A stretch of 64,000 nt of DNA, taken from the NCBI GenBank assembly GCA_965652295.1, contig CBFGTS010000017.1, positions 1 to 64,000 of the forward strand, read 5' to 3'. The notes beneath the pieces were generated by a model. It did no database searches and was not told the origin of the DNA. It saw only the letters and a list, made by a program, of their open reading frames with translations. Source of the DNA: an uncultured Haloferula sp. GTDB lineage: Bacteria; Verrucomicrobiota; Verrucomicrobiia; Verrucomicrobiales; Akkermansiaceae. Shown here in pieces: positions 47,904 through 58,161 of this stretch (position 1 is the stretch's first letter; every line of letters starts with the position of its first letter). A program made the translations under genes and the position numbers.

Positions 47904-48620
47904 GTGCGCGCCTTTGATCCGCTGGCGTTCCTGAAGCAGTTCGGTGACGAAGCGCGGCACCGAGGGCTCACCGCCCTGCGCCTCGCCGAAACCGCGGCCG
48001 GACCGGTGATGGCCTACACGCCCTCCTCCCCCGAGGGCGCGCGATATCTTTCCGCCGGGATCCATGGCGACGAACCCGCCGGCCCGCTTGCCGCACTTGA
48101 ATTGCTGCGTGGCGGACAGCTCGACGACGGCTGGATCATCTGCCCCGCGCTCAACCCCACCGGCCTCGCCGCCGCCACCCGGGAGAACGCCGAGGGTGTC
48201 GATTTGAACCGCGATTACCTCCGCCTCGAAACCGCCGAGATCCGTGCCCACGCTGCCTGGTTGGAATCGATGGTCACCCCGCAGGCCTTCGTTTCCCTGC
48301 ATGAGGACTGGGAATGCAGCGGGTTCTATTTTTACGAGATCAACCTTGGCGAAGACCGCCCGGAGCGGGCCCAAGCGATCCTCGATGCCGTCACTCCGTG
48401 CTTCCCGCCCGAGCCGGAAGCCAGCATCGACGACCACGACACCCGCGAGCCCGGCTGGATTTATCATGGTGCCGAGGCCGATCTGCCCCACGACTGGCCG
48501 GAAGCCATCTACCTCGCCAAACGCGGCTGCCCGATCTCCTTCACTTTCGAAACGCCGAGTTCGAAAGAACTCACGAAGCGCATCGCCGCCCACGTCGCCG
48601 CCTTTAAGGCGGCGATGTAG
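47904..48620 (+). CDS. M14 family Zn metallopeptidase / succinylglutamate desuccinylase-like
   Basis: SAGIHGDEPAG, NPTG, DLNRDY, SLHED, TFETPS; start uncertain. Confidence 0.85.
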   Translation: MRAFDPLAFLKQFGDEARHRGLTALRLAETAAGPVMAYTPSSPEGARYLSAGIHGDEPAGPLAALELLRGGQLDDGWIICPALNPTGLAAATRENAEGVDLNRDYLRLETAEIRAHAAWLESMVTPQAFVSLHEDWECSGFYFYEINLGEDRPERAQAILDAVTPCFPPEPEASIDDHDTREPGWIYHGAEADLPHDWPEAIYLAKRGCPISFTFETPSSKELTKRIAAHVAAFKAAM

Positions 48621-48695
48621 GAGGCGGGACGCCTCCGTCCCACAACCGGTGACGCCCGCTGCCACCCTCGCAGGACGAGGGCGTCCCGCCTCCTA
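48617..48695. repeat. GTAG-type REP doublet (inverted repeat)
   Basis: TAGGAGGCGGGACGCC (48618-48633)/GGCGTCCCGCCTCCTA (48680-48695); the GTAG includes the upstream stop codon. Confidence 0.65.
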
Positions 48696-48735
48696 TTTGA
48701 TCGAAGCGCCGCGACCGAGTCGTAGCATGGGTCAC

Positions 48736-50925
48736 ATGAAGTGGCTGCTGCCTTTTGCCCTCGTCGCCATCGCGACTGCGGAACCGGTCGATGAGTTCAT
48801 CTCCGCCGCCGCTTCGGAGCACGGTGCCTTCGGCGAAAAGGCGGCCCGTTTTCTGGTGGAGCACATGCCGGAGAAAGATCGCGACACTCTCAGCGCGGAT
48901 TTCCTGATCGAGAACCTCGATCTTGCACTGAAGGCTCGCGCGGTTTTCCCGTGGGCCCGGGATGTGCCGGAAGATCTCTTCCTTAACGACGTGCTTCCCT
49001 ACGCGGTGTTTGATGAAGCGCGCGACCCGTGGCGGGCGGATTTTTTCGAGAAGTGCGCCCCTCTCGTGAAGGACACCGCGACCGCCAGCGAGGCGGCGCA
49101 GCTCCTCAACAGGGAGTTCTTCGACCTGATCGGAACCCACTACGATACCCGCCGTAGCAAAACCAACCAGAGCCCGAAGGAATCGATGGAGCAGGGCAAG
49201 GCGACCTGCACCGGGCTCTCGATCCTGTTTGTCGATGCCTGTCGCGCGGTCGGCATCCCGGCACGAGCGGTCGGCACGCCGATGTGGTCCAATGGCCGCG
49301 GCAACCACACCTGGGTCGAGATCTGGGACGAGGGTTGGCGCTTCACCGGTGCGGACGAATACGACGAGGCCGGGCTGAACCGAGGGTGGTTCACCGCCGA
49401 TGCCGCGCAGGCCAAAGCCGACGACTCCGAACACGCGATCTATGCAACGAGCTGGCGGCGCGATGGCATCCATTTCCCCATGGTATGGTCGCCGGGCTCC
49501 AAGACCGTCGCCGCGGTCAACGTCACTCATCGCTATGCCAAGAATACCGACGTCCGCCCGCAGCTCGGCGTGCGCCTGTTCAGTGACGGCGAACGCATGG
49601 CGGGGAAAGGCTGGCTGACAAGCGCGAACGGCCGGCGGTTGGCGGAGTTCACGACCAAGGCCGGAACCACCGATCTGAACGACATGCCGCGGCTCGCCGT
49701 GACGCCCGGTCAAAGCTATCGCTTGTCCTTCGATGATCACGGCGAAACCCCGCCTTTCATCGCGGCAGCAGGCGAGAACACGCATGACGCCCGGCTCGCC
49801 GAGCTGACGCAGCCACCCGCGGCGGTCCTCGCGCTCGCCGCCGACCCCCTGGCCGACCCGTCGTTGTCCGCCGCGGATGCCGAACGCGTCATTTCCCTGC
49901 TCTCGGAGATCGAGCTGGAGAAAAGTCGCGCGGCGCGCGCCGCGGAGTTGGAGAAACGCGGGATCTCCCTCGATGGCACGACGTTGCGCTGGCTGGAAAA
50001 GGACTTCGGCGAGGCCGAGTCAGGCGGTCGCAGCCTGTGGATCTCCATGCACGGCGGCGGCGGCGCACCGACGGAGGTGAACGACCAGCAGTGGCGGAAC
50101 CAGATCGATCTCTACGAACCGGAGGAAGGCATTTACGTCGCCCCGCGGGCGCCGACGGATACCTGGAACCTGTGGCATCAGGACCACATCGATCCGCTCT
50201 TTTCGCGACTCATCGAGAGCATGATCGCGCTGCGCGGCGTGCATCCGAACAAGGTCTATTTGATGGGGTACTCCGCCGGCGGTGACGGCGTGTGGCAGCT
50301 CGCCCCGCGGATGGCGGACCGTTTCGCCGCGGCGGCGATGATGGCGGGCCACCCGAACGAGGCTTCGCTGCTGCCGCTGCGGAACCTGCCTTTTGCGATC
50401 TTCATGGGTGGCGAGGATGCGGCTTACGACCGGAACAAGATCGCCGCGGAACGGGTCGCCGAGCTCGGTCGTTTGCGAGCCTCCGATCCGCAGGGTTATG
50501 TTCACCTCGCCCGCATCTATGAAGGCCTCGGGCATTGGATGGACCGGCGAGATGCCGAGGCGCTGCCATGGATGGCCAAGTTCGAACGCGACCCGTGGCC
50601 GCGGAAGATCGTCTGGGTGCAGGACGACGTCACCCACCGCCGCTTCTACTGGCTGCAACTCCCTGGCAACTACGCGCCGCAGGCCGGTGAAAGGATCGAC
50701 GCCTCCGTGGACGGCCAGACCATTCATCTCTCCGAAAGCACGCCGCCGGGGACGGTGCTTCTCCTTCACGACGACCTGTTCGATCTCGACCGTCCGGTGC
50801 GGATCGAATGGCGCGGCCGGACCTTCGAGCGGAAACCCAAGCGTCACGCGGATGTCATCCGCCGGGCCCTCGCTTCGCGGCTCGACCCGCCTTCGTGCCC
50901 GACGGCGGAGGTCACCGTCGAGTAG
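48736..50925 (+). CDS. Exported transglutaminase-like domain plus alpha/beta-hydrolase (esterase) fusion protein
   Basis: Signal peptide; ATCTGLSI...CRAVGIPAR...NHTWVE; SMHGGG, GYSAGG, GLGHWM. Confidence 0.85.
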   Translation: MKWLLPFALVAIATAEPVDEFISAAASEHGAFGEKAARFLVEHMPEKDRDTLSADFLIENLDLALKARAVFPWARDVPEDLFLNDVLPYAVFDEARDPWRADFFEKCAPLVKDTATASEAAQLLNREFFDLIGTHYDTRRSKTNQSPKESMEQGKATCTGLSILFVDACRAVGIPARAVGTPMWSNGRGNHTWVEIWDEGWRFTGADEYDEAGLNRGWFTADAAQAKADDSEHAIYATSWRRDGIHFPMVWSPGSKTVAAVNVTHRYAKNTDVRPQLGVRLFSDGERMAGKGWLTSANGRRLAEFTTKAGTTDLNDMPRLAVTPGQSYRLSFDDHGETPPFIAAAGENTHDARLAELTQPPAAVLALAADPLADPSLSAADAERVISLLSEIELEKSRAARAAELEKRGISLDGTTLRWLEKDFGEAESGGRSLWISMHGGGGAPTEVNDQQWRNQIDLYEPEEGIYVAPRAPTDTWNLWHQDHIDPLFSRLIESMIALRGVHPNKVYLMGYSAGGDGVWQLAPRMADRFAAAAMMAGHPNEASLLPLRNLPFAIFMGGEDAAYDRNKIAAERVAELGRLRASDPQGYVHLARIYEGLGHWMDRRDAEALPWMAKFERDPWPRKIVWVQDDVTHRRFYWLQLPGNYAPQAGERIDASVDGQTIHLSESTPPGTVLLLHDDLFDLDRPVRIEWRGRTFERKPKRHADVIRRALASRLDPPSCPTAEVTVE

Positions 50926-50928
50926 CCC

Positions 50929-52878
50929 TCAGCAGAACTTCGCGTGGAGGATGTGGAGGCCGAGGAGGTGGTTGAGGAGGGCGTCCTTGCGGACGAGTGA
51001 AGTGGGGTCGCGGTCGGCGTCGTATTCCTTGAGGAAACCCTCCACCGCATCGGCGGAGAGGATGCCGCAGCGATTGACGGCGTCGCGGTTGAGGAAGGCG
51101 TCGATGAGTTCGCGAACCTTGGCCTTCTTCTTCTCGTCGGTGTGCGCGGGCGGGGCCATGAAGGCGAACTTCTCGCGCTTGTAGAGGATCTCGGGAAGGA
51201 CGCCGCAAACGGCCTCGCGGAGGACGTATTTCTCGATGTTGCCCTTGATGCGGTAATGCGGCGGCACCTTGAAGGCTGCCTCCGCGAGGTGGTGGTCGAG
51301 GAAGGCGGGGCGGCTTTCCATCGAGTTCGCCATGTCAACGCGGTCGCCGCCCCAGTTGAGGATCTGGCCTTCGAGCTGACACTTGGCCCAGGTGTACTGC
51401 GCGCGGTCGAGCGGGTGCCGGCCTTCCATCATCGAGTTGTCGATGCGTGAGGCGATTTCCTCGATGGGATCGTAGTCCTTCAGATGCTCGGCCACATCGG
51501 GATCGAGCAGCGGGCGGGCGAGGTCGAGGGTCTCCATCCAAGGCTGAAGCCAGGACGGCGTGAAGCCGCACATGGTGTCCCACGCGGGGTGGTGGCGGAC
51601 GTTTTCGGAGAGGATCGCGCCCTTGAAGAGCTTGTTGGTTTTCTCCAATGCCTCGGCGTATTCGGCGCGGATGTGCTCGGGCTCGTGGCTGATGCCGTGG
51701 AGGAACATGTCGCGCTTGAAGCCGGGGTAGCCGGCGAAAATCTCGTCGGAGCCCTCGCCGGTAACGACGCAGCGGTAACCGCATTCCCAGACGCGCTTGG
51801 ACATCAGATTCTTCGCCACGCCGAGGGTGTTGTAGAAGGTGCGCTCGGCGTGCCAGACGGTGTCGATGTAGTTCTCGCCGTAGAGATCGTCGGCGGCCAG
51901 GGTGATCATTTCCTGGTCGGCGTTCATCGACTCCGCCATCTCGCGGGCGATACTAGACTCGTCGTAGTCGTCGTTGTCGAAGGCGATGGTGAAGGCCTTG
52001 ACCGGCGATTGCATGGCGCCGGTGGCGAGGCCGAGGATGCAGCAGGAATCGATGCCGCCGCTGAGGTAGCAGCCGACCGGGACGTCGGCCTCAAGCCGGA
52101 GGACCACGGCGCGGGTGAGCTCCTCGCGGATCTTCTCGACGTGGTATTCCTCGTTCTCGGGCTGGTCGTGGCCGCCTTCTTCGGGGAAATCGAGGTCCCA
52201 GTATTTGATCTTCTCGATTGAAAGGCGGTCGCCGTTTTTCCGCACGCGGAGCAGGTGGCCGGGCGCGAGCGACTCGATGTTTTTGAACGCGCTCATGCCG
52301 GGCGCGATGGTCTGCATGAGCTGGTGCAGCGCGGCCTTTTCGTCGAGTTCGGCGGGGATCTCCGGGTGGGCGAGGAGGGCCTTGACCTCGGAACCCCAGT
52401 GGATGGTGTGGCCGTCCTGAACGTGGATGAAGAGCGGGCGGATACCCCAACGGTCGCGAACGAGGAGCAACTCGTCGTTCTCCTGATCATAGAGCGCGAA
52501 GGCGAACTCGCCGCGGAGGTGCTTGAGGAAATCGAGGCCGTGTTTGCGGTAGAGGCCGAGCGCGATCTCGGAGTCCGACTTGGTGCGGAACCGCTGGCCC
52601 TCGGCCATGAGGACGGAGCGGTGGAACTTGAAGTCGTAGAACTCGCCGTTGACGGTGGAAACGAAGCGGTCGTCGTACGAGCGGATCGGCTGGCAGCCGC
52701 CTTCGAGGTCGTTGATGGAGAGCCGAGTGTGCCCGAAGGCGATCCCACGTTCGGGCCGCAGCCAGGTGGTTTGCGCGTCGGGTCCACGGTGAAGGATGGC
52801 CTGGAGCTGATCGTGAAGGATCGGCTCACGGGCGTCGGTGAGAGGTCGGGCGGAAAAGCTGCCGGTAATGCCACACAT
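50929..52878 (-). CDS. asnB: Asparagine synthase (glutamine-hydrolysing)-family amidotransferase
   Basis: N-terminal MCGI (Ntn Cys), HRGPD, RLSINDL, NGEFY, RDRWGIRPL, LSGGIDS, TGEGSDE, DRVDMANSMESR.FLD. Confidence 0.93.
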   Translation of the reverse strand: MCGITGSFSARPLTDAREPILHDQLQAILHRGPDAQTTWLRPERGIAFGHTRLSINDLEGGCQPIRSYDDRFVSTVNGEFYDFKFHRSVLMAEGQRFRTKSDSEIALGLYRKHGLDFLKHLRGEFAFALYDQENDELLLVRDRWGIRPLFIHVQDGHTIHWGSEVKALLAHPEIPAELDEKAALHQLMQTIAPGMSAFKNIESLAPGHLLRVRKNGDRLSIEKIKYWDLDFPEEGGHDQPENEEYHVEKIREELTRAVVLRLEADVPVGCYLSGGIDSCCILGLATGAMQSPVKAFTIAFDNDDYDESSIAREMAESMNADQEMITLAADDLYGENYIDTVWHAERTFYNTLGVAKNLMSKRVWECGYRCVVTGEGSDEIFAGYPGFKRDMFLHGISHEPEHIRAEYAEALEKTNKLFKGAILSENVRHHPAWDTMCGFTPSWLQPWMETLDLARPLLDPDVAEHLKDYDPIEEIASRIDNSMMEGRHPLDRAQYTWAKCQLEGQILNWGGDRVDMANSMESRPAFLDHHLAEAAFKVPPHYRIKGNIEKYVLREAVCGVLPEILYKREKFAFMAPPAHTDEKKKAKVRELIDAFLNRDAVNRCGILSADAVEGFLKEYDADRDPTSLVRKDALLNHLLGLHILHAKFC

Positions 52879-52891
52879 GGTTTTGGAAGGA

Positions 52892-52926
52892 GAGATAGGT
52901 CGTATAAGTCCTATGGGACCTATTTC
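52892..52926. repeat. Hairpin built from degenerate 9-mer (ATAGGACCT-like) units between carbamoyltransferase and asnB genes
   Basis: GAGATAGGTC...GACCTATTTC; minus strand ATAGGTCCC ATAGGACTT ATACGACCT. Confidence 0.45.
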
Positions 52927-54011
52927 TAGGAGCCCGCGAATTCAGGAAGACGGTCAAGTCGGCCGAGCACCGCGAGCAGCAGCGCCTGGCGGACGAAGAC
53001 GGCCCCGTGAGCCTGGCTGAAGTAGAGGTTGTGCGGGGTTTTGTCCAAGGAGGTGTCCAGCTCATCAAGGCGGGCGAGCGGGTGGAGGATCACGGCTTCC
53101 TGCTTCAGCGGGCTGTCAGCGTCGAGCTTGTAGCGGGCGTCGAGCGCCTTGTAGGAGTCCCCGAGGAAGGCGATCGAGTTCATGTAAATCACATCGAGAC
53201 GCGGTAGGCTTTCGCGGATGTCGTTGGTGACCTCGTATTCGATGTTGGCGCGGTTGAGGCTCTCGGTGACGTCCTTGCCGAAGGGGTCGGCCATTTCCGA
53301 AATGACGGTGACCTTCTCGATGTGTTCGTGGAAAAGCAGCGCCATGAGCAGGAAGGATTTCACCGCGCGCATCGACCCGGGCGTGCCGAGGATGCCGAGC
53401 TGGAGTTTCTGGTCGCCGGTCTCGAAGGGTGCGGCGAGGCGGGGCTTCCATTTCAGCAGCGCATACCAGTCGGCCAGCGCCTGGGTCGGGTGCTCGCCGG
53501 AGCCGTTGCCGGCGTTGATGAGTGGGACGCGGAGGTTCTCGAGCATCTGCTTCGGCGCGTCGGTCTCGGTGTGACGCATGACGACGCAGTCGCAGTAGGC
53601 GTTGAACATTTCGCCGATGTCCTGGAGGGACTCGCCCTTCTTCGCGCCGGTCACGCCGCCATCGGGGATGGAAATGATCTTCCCGGCCAGGCGGTGGACG
53701 GCGCTCTCGAAGCTGGTGCGGGTGCGGGTGGAGGCTTCGAAGAAAGCGGTGGTGACGATTTTTCCATCGAGCGGATGGTAGGGCCAGATCTCGACCTGCT
53801 CGAGGAAGGCGGCGAGCTTGCACAGCTCGGCCACCTGCTGGAATGAGAACTGGCGGGCGTAGAGGACGTTCTGGCCGGAAAGTTCGGCCAGGACGTTGAG
53901 ATCGGGCGCGGCGGACGCAAAGAGGTTCCTCGGCTCGGGCCGGGTGGCGTCGGAGTCGCGCGGCGGCTTGAGATAGGGAGTCGCCGGGTTCGGCGTGAAT
54001 GCTTCGCTCAT
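52926..54011 (-). CDS. Aspartate/ornithine carbamoyltransferase-family protein (ATCase-like, altered acceptor site)
   Basis: FEASTRT, KKGES, MRH, NAGNGSGEHPTQ, HPL; YMNSIAF replaces YMTR.QKER; start moved to ATG 54011. Confidence 0.9.
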   Translation of the reverse strand: MSEAFTPNPATPYLKPPRDSDATRPEPRNLFASAAPDLNVLAELSGQNVLYARQFSFQQVAELCKLAAFLEQVEIWPYHPLDGKIVTTAFFEASTRTRTSFESAVHRLAGKIISIPDGGVTGAKKGESLQDIGEMFNAYCDCVVMRHTETDAPKQMLENLRVPLINAGNGSGEHPTQALADWYALLKWKPRLAAPFETGDQKLQLGILGTPGSMRAVKSFLLMALLFHEHIEKVTVISEMADPFGKDVTESLNRANIEYEVTNDIRESLPRLDVIYMNSIAFLGDSYKALDARYKLDADSPLKQEAVILHPLARLDELDTSLDKTPHNLYFSQAHGAVFVRQALLLAVLGRLDRLPEFAGS

Positions 54012-54034: not shown

Positions 54035-54154
54035 TTACCAAAGTTCGCCGCGCTTCCAGTCGCGGACCAGCAGCACGATCAAGGCAAGCGCGCCGAGACC
54101 GGTCCACACGAGGCCGAGGTAGACGAGGGCTTGGAGAAAGGTGGAGGAGAACAT
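54035..54154 (-). CDS. 39-aa single-TM small protein, probable SSS-transporter accessory subunit (not in ORF track)
   Basis: MFSSTFLQALVYLGLVWTGLGALALIVLLVRDWKRGELW*; starts 3 nt after the symporter stop; GC3-rich codons. Confidence 0.7.
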   Translation of the reverse strand: MFSSTFLQALVYLGLVWTGLGALALIVLLVRDWKRGELW

Positions 54155-54157
54155 GGC

Positions 54158-55579
54158 TTAGTGACCGATGGCATCGAGGGGCTTGGCTCCGATCCAGCGC
54201 GCGGCGAGGGTGAACACCATCGAGACCGCGCCGCCAACGAGTGCGCCGGTGTAGGTTTGGAGTTCAAAATACGCCCAAAGCCCGCTGGCACAACCGGCGA
54301 TGATTCCGGCGATGACGAGCGGGGCATTGAGTCGTTTCCAGAAGAGCCCGGCGATCACCGGCCAGATGAGGCTGGCGACGAGCGCGCCGGCGCTGAAGAG
54401 GACCTGATCGATGTTCCAGCCGCTGAGGGCGAGGCTCCAGGCGACCACGGAAACTACGATGATCGCCGTAGCGGCGACGGGGCGGAATTTCTGCGGATCG
54501 AGGTGCTGCTTGAAGACGCCCTCGTAGATGTCGCGGACCAGCAGGTCGGAGGTGGCGGCGAGGAGTGAATCGATCGAGGAAGCCATCGAGCAGAACAGCA
54601 CGACGAGGATGATGACGCCGGCGAACTGGCCCAGCCCGGCGAGGCCGAGGACGTGCTCGGCGACCTGCGGGCCGACTTTTCCGGGATCGGTTACGTTCAC
54701 GCCCAGCGGCCCCGCGCAGAGGGCGATGAAGCCGGCGGCGATCGGAATCGGGAACCACAGCACGCCGGAGAGGAAGAACGCCTTCGGCGCGACCTTTTCG
54801 CGCATGGCGAACGCGCGCGACCACCAGACGTTGTTGTGCATGACCTCGCCGAAGCCGAAGAGCATGTTGTTGAAAATGGCCAGCAGGGCGGCGGGCATCA
54901 TCACGTCGAGCAGCGCCGGCTGCTCCGCCATGAGGTGGCGGTGGACGGTGGGGACATCGACGTGATTGAGCACTTCGTAGCCGATGAAGACGATGCCGAT
55001 CAGGATGATCAGGCTCTGGATGAAATCGGTGCCGATGACCGCGTAGAGCCCGCCGAAGAGCGTGTAGAGCACGCAGACGACGAGGATCAACGTCATGCCG
55101 TGGACGTATTCGATGCCGCCGAGAGCCTCCAGCAGCTTGCCGCCGGCGATGGCCATGGTGACCAGCCAGGTGATGGAATACACCAGCGTAATGACGAGAA
55201 ATACGCCCCATCCCGTACGTCCGTAGCGCAGCCGGAAGAAATCGCCCGCGGTGACGCCCTCGGGGAGCAGCTTGCGGATGCGGAAGGCGAGCGGCGCGAA
55301 GAGCATCAACCCGAACGAGGCCGAGGCATAGGCGAGCATCCCCCAGACGCCTTTCTCGTAGGCGAGCAGCGGCGCGACCATGGTGGTGTTCGAGGTCACC
55401 CACGTAGCCATGGCGGTGGCGGTGCCGAGGGAAAGCCCGACGTTGCGTCCGGCGAGCATGAAACCCTCGCTGGTCTTCGCTTTCCTGCCCCACCACATGC
55501 CGAGCGCGACCCACAACACGCCCAGCCCGATGACGATGGCCCAGGCGGTGGAGTGGGAAATGGAAGCGGCGAGGATCAT
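54158..55579 (-). CDS. Sodium:solute symporter (SSS) family transporter
   Basis: About 13 TM helices; FMLAGRNVG, ATWVTSNT, YTLFGGLYAVIGTDFIQ, WWSRAFA, SSIDSLLAA; ATGA overlap with upstream gene. Confidence 0.92.
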   Translation of the reverse strand: MILAASISHSTAWAIVIGLGVLWVALGMWWGRKAKTSEGFMLAGRNVGLSLGTATAMATWVTSNTTMVAPLLAYEKGVWGMLAYASASFGLMLFAPLAFRIRKLLPEGVTAGDFFRLRYGRTGWGVFLVITLVYSITWLVTMAIAGGKLLEALGGIEYVHGMTLILVVCVLYTLFGGLYAVIGTDFIQSLIILIGIVFIGYEVLNHVDVPTVHRHLMAEQPALLDVMMPAALLAIFNNMLFGFGEVMHNNVWWSRAFAMREKVAPKAFFLSGVLWFPIPIAAGFIALCAGPLGVNVTDPGKVGPQVAEHVLGLAGLGQFAGVIILVVLFCSMASSIDSLLAATSDLLVRDIYEGVFKQHLDPQKFRPVAATAIIVVSVVAWSLALSGWNIDQVLFSAGALVASLIWPVIAGLFWKRLNAPLVIAGIIAGCASGLWAYFELQTYTGALVGGAVSMVFTLAARWIGAKPLDAIGH

Positions 55580-56130
55580 CGCGATTTGGCAAACCCGTGG
55601 AGGATGGCTCCGATGGTGAGGACGGCGACAAACGCACCGGTGCCGAGCAACAGGTGGAGCTGCCCGCGGTGCATGTATTCGACCTTGATCCGGAGCGGCT
55701 CCGACCACTCGGTGGCTCCTGTTTCGCGGACGCGGAAATGGTAGGTCCCTTCGGCGAGGCCGGTCAGCACGCTCTCGGTGTCAGGACCGCGGTAGCGCAG
55801 GTGCGCGTCGGAGAAATCGGCGTCGGTGCTTTGTTGCAGCTCGTATTCGGGTCCTTCGCCCCGCCAGACGAGGTCGATGGTGCCGTCGTCGCTGACTCCG
55901 GCTCTCGGGCCGAGATCGCTTTCCAGCAAAGGCGCGGCCATCGCGGAGCCGACCACTCCACCCACGACGAGGCCGGCGAAAACCGACCTGCAGAAATGGA
56001 TGTTGGGCGAAGGAAGAAAGATGGTTCCGTCGGGTTGGATGGCGGCTGTCCGGCAACGGCGGTTGCTGAAAAACGGCGCGGCTACCCTTGGGTCTAACCG
56101 CCGCGATGGCAAATTCTTTCTGGAATCCAT
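55576..56130 (-). CDS. Membrane-anchored protein with fibronectin-III-like domain
   Basis: IDLVW...YELQQS...YRGPD...LTGLAEGTYHFRVR...WSEPL plus C-terminal TM; true start uncertain and probably downstream of 56130. Confidence 0.65.
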   Translation of the reverse strand: MDSRKNLPSRRLDPRVAAPFFSNRRCRTAAIQPDGTIFLPSPNIHFCRSVFAGLVVGGVVGSAMAAPLLESDLGPRAGVSDDGTIDLVWRGEGPEYELQQSTDADFSDAHLRYRGPDTESVLTGLAEGTYHFRVRETGATEWSEPLRIKVEYMHRGQLHLLLGTGAFVAVLTIGAILHGFAKSR

Positions 56131-56156: not shown

Positions 56157-57413
56157 ATGGTCGAGACGATGCCCGAAATATCCATCGAAAGGCTCGGCGG
56201 CGATCTACGGGAACTCTCGGAGATCGGACGCGCGGAGGATGGCGGCGTGTACCGCATGGCTTTCACCGAGGCCGACATGCGCGGCAAGGCATGGCTGGAG
56301 CAGCGCATGCAGGACGCGGGCCTGGAAACCTCGCGCGATGGCGCGTGCAACGTGATCGGCCGGCTCGCCGGAAAAAACGCGGAGGCCCCCGCGCTGGTGA
56401 TCGGCTCCCACATCGACACGGTGCCGTGCGCCGGGATCCTCGATGGCACCCTGGGCGTGCTGACCGGGCTCGAATGCCTGCGCGCGGTGAAGGAAAGCGG
56501 CCGCGTGCCGGAGCGCGACATCGAGCTGATCGCCTTCTCCGATGAGGAAGGCCGCTTCGGCGGCATGCTCGGCTCGCAGGCATTCGCCGGGCAGGTCACG
56601 CCGGATGTCATCCACACCGCGGTCGATCCCGCGGGCGAAAAAATGGCCGATGCGATGGCCGCGCACGGCCTCGATCCCTGGCTCGCGTTGCAGGCGCGGC
56701 GCGATCCGCAGACGATCGCCGCCTACCTGGAGCTGCACATCGAGCAGGGCCCGGTGCTTTCCGGAAACGACGAGCAGATCGGCGTGGTCGAGGCGATCAC
56801 CGGGCTCTTCAAGTGGACCGTGACGCTTTCCGGCGAGCCGAACCACGCCGGCACCACGCCCATGCCGATGCGGCGCGACGCGTTCATGGGCGTGGCCGAT
56901 TTCGCCCACGAGATCCCGCGCCTGCTCGACGAGAACGGCTCCGAACGCTCGCGGGCGACGATCGGCCGCGTGGATCTCACGCCCGGCTCCGCCAACACGG
57001 TGCCGGGCGAGGCCCGGTTCACCCTCGACGTGCGCGATACGGACGAGACGGTGATGCACGAACTCGCCGACTCCGCACGCAAGGCGCTCAACGCGATCGC
57101 CCGACGCCGCGGGCTGCGTTTCAACTACGAGGTCGATAGCTGGATCAATCCGGTCGATTGCGATGCCGCGCTTTCCGACATGGTTGAAGCCGCGGCGAAA
57201 GACGCGGGCACCCGTTTCCGCCGCATGATCTCGGGTGCCGCCCACGATGCGCAGATCGTCGCCTCGCTCTGTCCCGTAGGCATGATTTTCGTCCCGTCGC
57301 TGGAGGGAAAATCCCACTCGCCCGCGGAATGGACCGCCTGGGACGACATCGAGGCCGGGGCCCGCGTCATGCTCGGCACGATCGAACGCTTCGCCTTCCC
57401 ATCCGCTTCCTGA
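56157..57413 (+). CDS. Zn-dependent N-carbamoyl-L-amino-acid amidohydrolase / allantoate amidohydrolase family (M20)
   Basis: GSHIDTV, GILDG.LGV, EEGRF, YLELHIEQGP, NHAGTTPM, SGAAHDA, SHSPAE; start 56157 or 56169. Confidence 0.93.
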   Translation: MVETMPEISIERLGGDLRELSEIGRAEDGGVYRMAFTEADMRGKAWLEQRMQDAGLETSRDGACNVIGRLAGKNAEAPALVIGSHIDTVPCAGILDGTLGVLTGLECLRAVKESGRVPERDIELIAFSDEEGRFGGMLGSQAFAGQVTPDVIHTAVDPAGEKMADAMAAHGLDPWLALQARRDPQTIAAYLELHIEQGPVLSGNDEQIGVVEAITGLFKWTVTLSGEPNHAGTTPMPMRRDAFMGVADFAHEIPRLLDENGSERSRATIGRVDLTPGSANTVPGEARFTLDVRDTDETVMHELADSARKALNAIARRRGLRFNYEVDSWINPVDCDAALSDMVEAAAKDAGTRFRRMISGAAHDAQIVASLCPVGMIFVPSLEGKSHSPAEWTAWDDIEAGARVMLGTIERFAFPSAS

Positions 57414-57417
57414 ACCC

Positions 57418-58161
57418 ATGTCCGTCACCTCCATCACCGACCCCCTCCGCCAGCAATATCGCGAAGCCTTTGTCACCAATCCGCGCCGCGCGGAGCACCT
57501 CGCCGATGGCAAGGTGGCGCTGTTGTGCATCGACGTGCAGTACCTCGACGCGGCCGATGGCTACGGGCTCTTCGCCGATCCCGACACGAGCGGCGTGCCG
57601 GAGGAGGGACGGAAGTACTACTTCGAGCGTTTGGAAACGCTGGTGCTGCCCGGCATGCGGCTGCTGCAGGATGCGTTCCGCGGCGAGAAGCTGGAGGTCA
57701 TCCACATTCGGATCTGCGCGCTGACCCACGACGGCCGGGACCGGAGCGCCGGGCACCGACGGCTCAACCTGCTGGCCGCTCCCGGCAGCAAGGAGGCGGA
57801 GTTTCTCGAGCAGGTCGCGCCGGAGGGCGATGAGATCGTGATCAACAAAACCGCCAGCGGCGTATTCTCCAGCACCAACATCCATTACGTGCTCGGCAAC
57901 CTCGGCATCCGCTCGCTCTATCTCTGCGGCGTCTACACCAACGAGTGCGTCGAGACCGCCGCACGCGACGCCTGCGACCTCGGGTATTTCGTGACGATCG
58001 TCGAGGATGCCTGCGCGACGGTGACCGAGCGCCTGCACGAGGCCTCGCTGGCGACGCTGCGCGACCGCTACGCGCGGATCAATTCCGTGCGCGATGTGCT
58101 GAGGGAACTCGACGTCCTGCGCGACAGCTCCACGGCCGCAATCCTCTCGCGGACCGAATAG
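57418..58161 (+). CDS. Isochorismatase-family cysteine hydrolase
   Basis: Asp-Lys-Cys triad: IDVQ, NKTASGVF, GVYTNECVETAARDA. Confidence 0.92.
   Translation: MSVTSITDPLRQQYREAFVTNPRRAEHLADGKVALLCIDVQYLDAADGYGLFADPDTSGVPEEGRKYYFERLETLVLPGMRLLQDAFRGEKLEVIHIRICALTHDGRDRSAGHRRLNLLAAPGSKEAEFLEQVAPEGDEIVINKTASGVFSSTNIHYVLGNLGIRSLYLCGVYTNECVETAARDACDLGYFVTIVEDACATVTERLHEASLATLRDRYARINSVRDVLRELDVLRDSSTAAILSRTE

Follow-up and report, generated by a model that had tools for sequence, protein, structure and literature searches.

The closest described relatives of the gene examined here are the "pseudo-ATCases," named after aspartate carbamoyltransferase (ATCase) and defined in 2013 by Barba, Dutoit, Legrain, and Labedan (PMC4016543), among which is a marine subgroup with carriers in Rhodopirellula baltica (RB13301), Nitrosococcus oceani, Synechococcus WH8102, and Kangiella koreensis. 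A row of Table 1 in that paper gives the motifs STRT, HPTQ, HPLA, and AIA/AIS/SIA; the subgroups numbered 1 and 3 in this table apparently carry each other's numbers in the text, and we assign the HPLA row to the marine group because six Kangiella loci read AIA together with HPLA and because UGTCase, another pseudo-ATCase, has H(T/S)LP. The only assay that we found in the paper is for the Rubrobacter enzyme, and our literature search found no assay or later characterization of the marine subgroup. Here we describe a transcarbamylase gene of this kind in a 64,000-nucleotide stretch of DNA from an uncultured Haloferula sp. of the Verrucomicrobiota (GenBank assembly GCA_965652295.1, contig CBFGTS010000017.1, positions 1 to 64,000; hereafter the window). 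The gene occupies a single open frame at 52926..54011 on the minus strand and encodes 361 amino acids. The best explanation for it as a whole, which we put at a little under an even chance, is that it encodes an active anabolic transcarbamylase whose product, made from glutamine, is amidated to an uncharged solute.

The window enzyme matches the published motif row exactly (STRT, HPTQ, HPLA, SIA), its gene context matches that given for the subgroup, and an authentic ATCase is encoded elsewhere in the genome, as in the subgroup; in the features by which the paper defines the subgroup, we found no difference. By its motifs, then, it is a member of the marine pseudo-ATCase subgroup already described in 2013. 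What the paper names as a neighboring "asparaginase" proved to be an AsnB-type synthetase throughout the loci that we examined. An earlier, sequence-only reading of the window had proposed a transcarbamylase of new specificity acting on an alpha-amino acid with a side chain other than that of aspartate. Its acceptor class is consistent with the residues discussed below, but its claim to novelty does not stand, as the 2013 paper had already covered the family together with its motifs, misannotation, and gene context. The remodeled loop is itself already in print, and the family is not new.

Both carbamoyltransferase Pfam domains were found in the window enzyme, which carries an N-terminal extension of about 45 residues relative to ATCases. 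The sequence-only reading had listed STRT, KKGE, MRH, HPTQ, and HPL as retained. A motif scan located the phosphate-binding STRT (53721..53732; amino acids 94 to 97, equivalent to S52 to T55 of Escherichia coli ATCase), MRH (53571..53579; amino acids 145 to 147, with R146 for R105), and the carbamoyl-binding HPTQ (53481..53492; amino acids 174 to 177, containing the equivalents of H134 and Q137), all on the minus strand, as are the motifs that follow. KKGE of the 80s loop (53631..53642; amino acids 124 to 127) is present as well, but across the family only its second Lys, K125 (equivalent to K84), is conserved (90 of 90 sequences sharing less than 80% identity), the first being Ala in 82 of the 90. 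HPL is likewise present, within HPLAR (53070..53084; amino acids 310 to 314), but the reading overlooked the next residue, in which the cis-Pro P268 is replaced by Ala; all 357 listed relatives that reach the motif have Ala or Ser here (HPLA in 347, HPFA in 5, HPMA in 3, and HPLS in 2). The chain of 1EZZ also reads HPLAR there, and we take 1EZZ to be the P268A mutant of the E. coli enzyme with lowered activity; a literature search gave no paper on the mutant. The Arg that the reading placed at the position of R167, an alpha-carboxylate ligand, is R215 in GSMRAVKS (53355..53378; amino acids 212 to 219), which aligns with the Arg of GRTVHS/GRTVRS and directly follows the family-invariant M214.

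The segment that departs most from ATCase is the 240s loop, where the reading had YMTRxQxER replaced by YMNSIAFLG (53160..53186; amino acids 276 to 284), and the alignments bear this out. When the enzyme was aligned by HMMER to the E. coli ATCase chain 1EZZ, the strand entering the loop was free of gaps, and N278, S279, and A281 are placed at T228, R229, and Q231 because of that gapless strand. The loop is 2 residues shorter than that of 1EZZ, with the deletion where the E. coli KER begins, and 3 residues shorter than that of the Moritella enzyme, and gaps of similar size separate it from the Pyrococcus abyssi enzyme. SMG and HCLP, the OTCase signatures that the reading had reported missing, were not found in the protein by the motif scan, nor were RxQxER and HP[LG]P. 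The best sequence match in the PDB was 1ML4 (E value, 8e-45). An AlphaFold model (mean predicted local distance difference test score, 91.7; alignment of 124 sequences) was likewise closest to ATCases, with Foldseek TM scores of 0.77/0.89 to 5VMQ and, against the ATCase domain of CAD, a Z score of 36.4 and a root mean square deviation of 1.9 over 298 residues.

Curated models separate the window enzyme from the named transcarbamylases. It scored below the cutoffs of both ATCase models (177.5 versus 236.95 bits for TIGR00670 and 173.1 versus 263 bits for NF002032), of the OTCase model NF001986 (88.9 versus 306), and of the putrescine transcarbamylase (PTCase) model TIGR04384 (53 versus 500). 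For the knotted YgeW, AOTCase, and SOTCase enzymes, it scored 30.2 against a cutoff of 288 with NF003384, and two relatives scored about 33 against 500 with TIGR03316. Neither the H(T/S)LP motif of UGTCase nor the HDLP motif of DPTCase and DBTCase is present in it. The host genome contains three PF02729 matches, which are ArgF (with HCLP and encoded next to an acetylornithine-aminotransferase-like gene), PyrB (with RVQ and HPGP), and the window gene; ArgF and PyrB each pass their curated NCBIfam cutoffs. Since a true pyrB and a true argF are both present separately, the window gene encodes a third transcarbamylase, and five named genomes with a family member likewise have three transcarbamylases each. 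On these scores and motifs, the window gene is not a pyrB, its product failing ATCase membership while being ATCase-like in its carbamoyl-phosphate half. The warning that automatic annotation as pyrB would probably be wrong was well placed, given that many sources label the relatives "aspartate carbamoyltransferase."

To place the enzyme within its family, we pooled relatives from three protein searches with overlapping result sets, with 120 relatives listed from each. At the thresholds set, 1,365 clusters at 90% identity lay near the window protein, 2,371 near a proteobacterial member, and 1,501 near a Chromatiales-type member; the nearest named relative among the matches listed is Haloferula luteola (92%). 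The C-terminal motif was reached by 357 of the 360 relatives listed, and all 357 carry STRT, while none has R-x-Q in the loop, so the loop change is not due to chance. The triplet found there is AIA in 163, SIA in 137, TIA in 25, and AIS in 16, followed by Trp or Phe in 350; in the best 80 of 394 genome loci, it is AIS in 44, AIA in 30, and SIA in 6. Residues invariant in the 90 sequences (a partial list) are S94 to T97, K125, R146, H174, Q177, G209, M214, R215, N278, H310, P311, A313, and R314. The tree that the reading had called for, a quick IQ-TREE search of 86 rows, places the family on a branch of its own, away from 35 ATCases with RxQ (stem, 1.17; Shimodaira-Hasegawa-like approximate likelihood ratio test, 100, the one support measure used). 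The host PyrB and ArgF join it as long branches; its rows are without characterized UGTCase, DPTCase, PTCase, or YgeW sequences and without the proteins named by Barba et al. The spread of the family is patchy, with members in 3 of 201 genomes of the class and 12 of 35 of the genus. Named carriers, from two of the protein searches and from a genome scan seeded with marine gammaproteobacterial sequences, belong mostly to marine or saline genera, and 394 species genomes match two patterns of one branch of the family. A plasmid search returned a single match at 38%, which is not a member, and an atlas search with the window enzyme returned carbamoyltransferase clusters only.

This conservation bears on whether the gene could encode a second true ATCase (a pyrB2 isoenzyme) or a scaffold protein that has lost catalysis. 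No solved protein is closer in sequence or fold than the ATCases (among them the CAD domain), the relatives are named ATCase by their sources, and Ala replaces P268. However, RxQ, stated to occur in all known ATCases (PMC4581275), is absent from all 357 listed relatives, the scores fall below the ATCase cutoffs, a true pyrB lies elsewhere in the genome, and every carbamoyl-phosphate ligand is invariant, unlike in a degenerate sister clade. We regard either version of this idea as very improbable.

The degenerate clade consists of 12 paralogues, representatives of separate 50% clusters with lengths of 354 to 374 amino acids (P0142, P0143, P0144, P0150, P0155, P0158, P0159, P0162, P0186, P0192, P0230, and P0253), which keep the family scaffold but lack STRT, the Lys equivalent to K84, and mostly HPTQ. 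They form a clade (support, 100) nested in the family beside the proteobacterial branch, and their sequences suggest that they are probably conserved pseudo-enzymes. Four of their loci (L089:401-1468, L090:4796-5881, L091:5577-6716, and L092:1-801, on contigs of 5.9 to 13.9 kb) have no gene for AsnB, a sodium:solute symporter (SSS), or M20 nearby, and we rejected a role as operon partner subunits for these four. Four other divergent members (P0123, P0125, P0127, and P0131, one of them from Actinophytocola sp.) have the loops NALV, NVIA, NSLT, and NSLI and may have further specificities.

The family also has a largely fixed gene neighborhood. In the window, a gene for an AsnB-type glutamine-dependent amidotransferase of 649 amino acids (50929..52878, minus strand) follows the transcarbamylase gene at a distance of 47 bp, and the sodium:solute symporter gene (SSF family; 54158..55579, minus strand; start deduced from an ATGA at which it overlaps the stop of the gene upstream) precedes it. 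We compared 82 loci, namely, the best 80 of the 394 species-genome loci (obtained with gammaproteobacterial seeds) and 2 from Verrucomicrobiae, and in all 82 the symporter, transcarbamylase, and AsnB genes follow one another in the same order and on the same strand. Of 80 metagenomic loci, we examined 29, comprising 24 family members, 4 degenerate paralogues, and 1 true ATCase; AsnB adjoins the enzyme in 21 of the 24 family loci, and the other 3 stop at contig ends. Among the 35 genomes of the genus, the enzyme, AsnB, and a cysteine hydrolase occur side by side in the same 12, which are kin rather than independent cases, and this joint occurrence argues that AsnB is no housekeeping enzyme.

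AsnB keeps Cys2, NGE, SGGIDS, and the C-terminal Lys motif, and all 100 copies recovered carry EGQIL[TN]WGGDRVD, a segment that is different both in E. coli AsnB and in the 7YLZ enzyme. The WGG segment presumably replaces the aspartate-binding residues of asparagine synthetase. AsnB passes the asparagine synthase model TIGR01536 (377 versus 267 bits) but falls below the E. coli-type AsnB model (246 versus 499) and the AsnO model TIGR03104 (253.5 versus 570.1), and it also failed the XrtA model. Among solved proteins, it is most closely related to the hydroxyamidotransferase 7YLZ (E value, 7e-44), which comes ahead of asparagine synthetases. The host genome has no other full-length PF00733 match, and AsnB was not found in 23 of the 35 genomes of the genus.

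The remaining genes of the cluster include two that could unmake what the others make. On the plus strand, divergent from the operon, lie a gene for an M20 enzyme (56157..57413), which among solved proteins is closest to the N-carbamoyl-L-amino acid hydrolase 3N5F (E value, 5e-83), and, 4 bp after it, one for an isochorismatase-family cysteine hydrolase, a candidate amidase (57418..58161). The M20 gene lies within the locus in 35 of the 82 loci and the cysteine hydrolase gene in 2, and the latter is also present in 4 of the 24 metagenomic family loci. An M20 orthologue is encoded in all five named genomes, unlinked in two Idiomarinaceae; the idea that Idiomarinaceae lack the carbamoylase, raised by its absence from their loci, was rejected when the gene was found elsewhere in both genomes tested. 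In seven loci without the cysteine hydrolase (L097, L104 to L107, L109:12410-13111, and L110), a DUF1028 protein is encoded directly after the M20 gene, which suggests a stand-in amidase.

Taken together, these genes would form a pathway of the following kind. Carbamoyl phosphate would be bound as in ATCase, its site being intact, while R215 and K125 would hold the alpha-carboxylate of the acceptor in the roles assigned to R167 and K84 of ATCase (PMC4581275). With both of these residues invariant in the 90 sequences, the acceptor would be an L-amino acid with a side chain other than that of aspartate. Replacement of the beta-carboxylate ligands by Asn, Ser, and Ala plus an aromatic residue would give a larger pocket for an uncharged side chain longer than that of Asp, most simply that of L-glutamine, in which case N278 would bind the amide and F282 would pack against the chain. 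AsnB would then amidate the carboxyl group of the product, as AsnO does for N-acetylglutaminylglutamine amide (NAGGN), and the Na+ symporter, with its small transmembrane and FN3-like partners, would import or recapture the compound. Breakdown would begin with the divergent cysteine hydrolase acting as an amidase and continue with the M20 carbamoylase. The cluster probably makes a carbamoylated, amidated amino acid. That the acceptor is glutamine and the solute exactly N-carbamoyl-L-glutamine 1-amide is a more doubtful proposition, and we advance with slightly greater reserve still the suggestion that the enzyme is a glutamine carbamoyltransferase starting the missing pathway to N-carbamoyl-glutamine amide.

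Some published observations are in line with such a pathway. Ectothiorhodospira marismortui is a known producer of a solute that bears precisely this pair of modifications (PMC1224877), and the passages of PMC7824335 on N-carbamoyl-L-glutamine 1-amide name no genes for it. The symmetry between genes for making and unmaking the compound parallels that of the NAGGN system (AsnO, Ngg, and a peptidase; PMC8070244). In R. baltica, RB13300 and RB13294, which are numbered next to RB13301, appear on the salinity-up sheet of a shock study with ratios of 1.42 and 1.25 (PMC2754498), an indication that we graded as weak. Within the genus, NqrA, used as a marine marker, was found in 0 of 35 genomes, and a search for ectoine synthase gave only weak cupin-level matches in 22 of 35 genomes, 4 of them at the cutoff; neither result was informative.

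The same anabolic logic could also be served by other chemistry, with an acceptor that is asparagine (made by AsnB), glutamate, or another L-amino acid, or with AsnB amidating a side chain, such that the product would be, for example, N-carbamoyl-asparagine or an N-carbamoyl-glutamine with a free alpha-carboxylate, serving as a solute or a nitrogen store. M20 carbamoylases require a free alpha-carboxylate, and the five named genomes all have the M20 carbamoylase and none has an orthologue of the amidase; moreover, AsnB is the genome's only full-length PF00733 match and passes the asparagine synthase cutoff, and the invariant N278 could bind any side-chain amide. Against this, Ser and Ala in place of both R229 and Q231 would leave more room than Asn needs, the loop has no family-specific invariant basic residue for a Glu carboxylate, and AsnB, among solved proteins, resembles a hydroxyamidotransferase most closely, falls below the E. 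coli-type model, and was not found in most genomes of the genus (23 of 35). We consider this set of alternatives, products included, unlikely.

A different view runs the cluster in the opposite direction. A ureido compound would be imported and the enzyme would work in reverse, by phosphorolysis, so that carbamoyl phosphate would feed pyrimidine or arginine synthesis, or the cluster would form an alternative route for pyrimidines or nitrogen recycling. Doré et al. (bioRxiv 10.1101/2022.08.17.504260) report that picocyanobacteria have an asnB-pyrB2-pydC cluster, which they suggest could serve as an alternative pyrimidine route. Given its gene set and the metagenomic loci that resemble it, we infer that this is the same cluster as that of the window. 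That suggestion, the enrichment in N-depleted waters, the symporter in all 82 loci, urease genes near 4 picocyanobacterial-type loci, and the catabolic nature of the related pseudo-ATCase UGTCase (PMC4016543) would all fit scavenging, as would locus L113, where an amino-acid-kinase-family (carbamate kinase-like) gene lies 1.4 kb downstream (L113:12828-13757), 3' of AsnB and together with a Na+/H+ exchanger gene. However, L113 is the sole such case among 106 related loci, no carbamate kinase-like gene is present in the window, and this rarity argues against a catabolic transcarbamylase. The tightest partner, moreover, is a synthetase that consumes ATP and glutamine, an M20 carbamoylase would already strip the carbamoyl group, and an alternative pyrimidine route requires carbamoyl-aspartate, against which the missing R229 and Q231 argue. 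Scavenging in any of these forms seems to us improbable.

Several points nevertheless weigh against the synthesis of an amidated carbamoyl-glutamine solute, which we prefer. Judging from the sequence, Ala at the position of P268 may mean that catalysis is slower or differently arranged. The candidate amidase does not belong to the core of the cluster (2 of 82 and 4 of 24 loci; no orthologue in the five named genomes), which leaves room for a product with a free alpha-carboxylate. No Ectothiorhodospira name appears among the best 80 of the 394 genome loci, the matches listed in the three 120-protein lists, or 20 clusters that were looked up. A published survey of R. baltica solutes reportedly did not list N-carbamoyl-glutamine amide. 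In the study of R. baltica under salt, heat, and cold shock (PMC2754498), RB13301 is on no differential-expression sheet, and the text names glutamate and trehalose. Finally, the picocyanobacterial cluster characterizes warm waters depleted in N and P and occurs also in the Red Sea (bioRxiv 10.1101/2022.08.17.504260); an N-depleted niche would be odd for an osmolyte with four nitrogens, although the Red Sea fits better, and urease lies close by in four loci of the picocyanobacterial type.

Other genes around the enzyme complete the picture of the locus. Between the symporter and the transcarbamylase, a 39-amino-acid protein with a single transmembrane segment and no Pfam match is encoded (54035..54154, minus strand). 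A small hydrophobic open reading frame before the enzyme was found by a loose filter in 71 of 80 loci (a few being other reading frames) and by a strict pattern in 46 of 82. Such proteins of about 40 amino acids end in D-x-K-x-x-x-W (e.g., L007:7885-8007) and are possibly a small subunit of the symporter. Upstream of the symporter lies a gene for an exported FN3/Ig-like protein with a C-terminal hydrophobic helix (55576..56130, minus strand; start uncertain), which has no Pfam or NCBIfam match and an atlas look-alike at 0.97; the upstream exported FN3/Ig-like protein clusters in 77 of the 82 loci and is an unusual partner for an SSS transporter (e.g., L029:5948-6436). A long open reading frame with transglutaminase-like and alpha/beta-hydrolase (polyhydroxybutyrate-depolymerase-like) domains (48244..50925, plus strand) converges on the AsnB gene. 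The G+C content at third codon positions of the cluster genes (0.76 to 0.88) is similar to that of a nearby citrate synthase gene (0.82), and promoter and terminator scans were at chance level (1 versus 0.7 and 7 versus 5.8). A MarR gene lies within 8 kb in 48 of the 106 related loci, mostly of Idiomarinaceae, with none in the window, and in 1 of the 106 (L095:1-639) the symporter gene is directly preceded by a fragment of an S-adenosylmethionine-dependent methyltransferase gene. This fragment presumably resembles the sarcosine/dimethylglycine methyltransferase of betaine synthesis. We judged both to be weak as meaningful partners, MarR being found mostly in kin and the methyltransferase only once.

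Assignment of a new transcarbamylase specificity would correct the annotation of a large family that is widely named ATCase. If our proposal holds, the reaction would provide a candidate pathway for an orphan osmolyte, possibly a salt-protection solute, and an enzyme with glutamate or glutamine as its acceptor would be a route to N-carbamylglutamate-type compounds, which a 2015 review names as an engineering goal.

Set beside the described systems, the window enzyme shares with the ATCase catalytic chain (PyrB, EC 2.1.3.2; ATC II, as in E. coli, P. abyssi 1ML4, and CAD) the fold, the carbamoyl-phosphate ligands, and the equivalents of R167 and K84; it differs in having no R229, Q231, or KER part, in Ala for P268 and Met at the position of G166, in its N-terminal extension, and in a context without pyrimidine genes. 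Like the window enzyme, UGTCase of Rubrobacter xylanophilus (Rxyl_2847) is ATCase-derived and without RxQ and has kept the equivalent of R167 (R189; PMC4581275), but it is catabolic, with H(T/S)LP and with carbamate kinase and allantoinase as neighbors, none of which applies to the window enzyme. The NAGGN system (AsnO, Ngg, an M42 peptidase, and the MarR protein PA3458; PMC8070244) combines, as here, an N-capping enzyme, an AsnB-type amidotransferase, and a hydrolase. The cap in the window would be carbamoyl rather than acetyl, none of the cluster's genes encodes a GNAT or ligase of the Ngg kind, AsnB falls below the AsnO model, and a Na+ symporter is included. Nearest of all is the marine pseudo-ATCase subgroup itself, from the published members of which the window member stands apart in its Verrucomicrobiota lineage, not among the organisms that we found named by Barba et al., and in hydrolase genes that are divergent from the operon.

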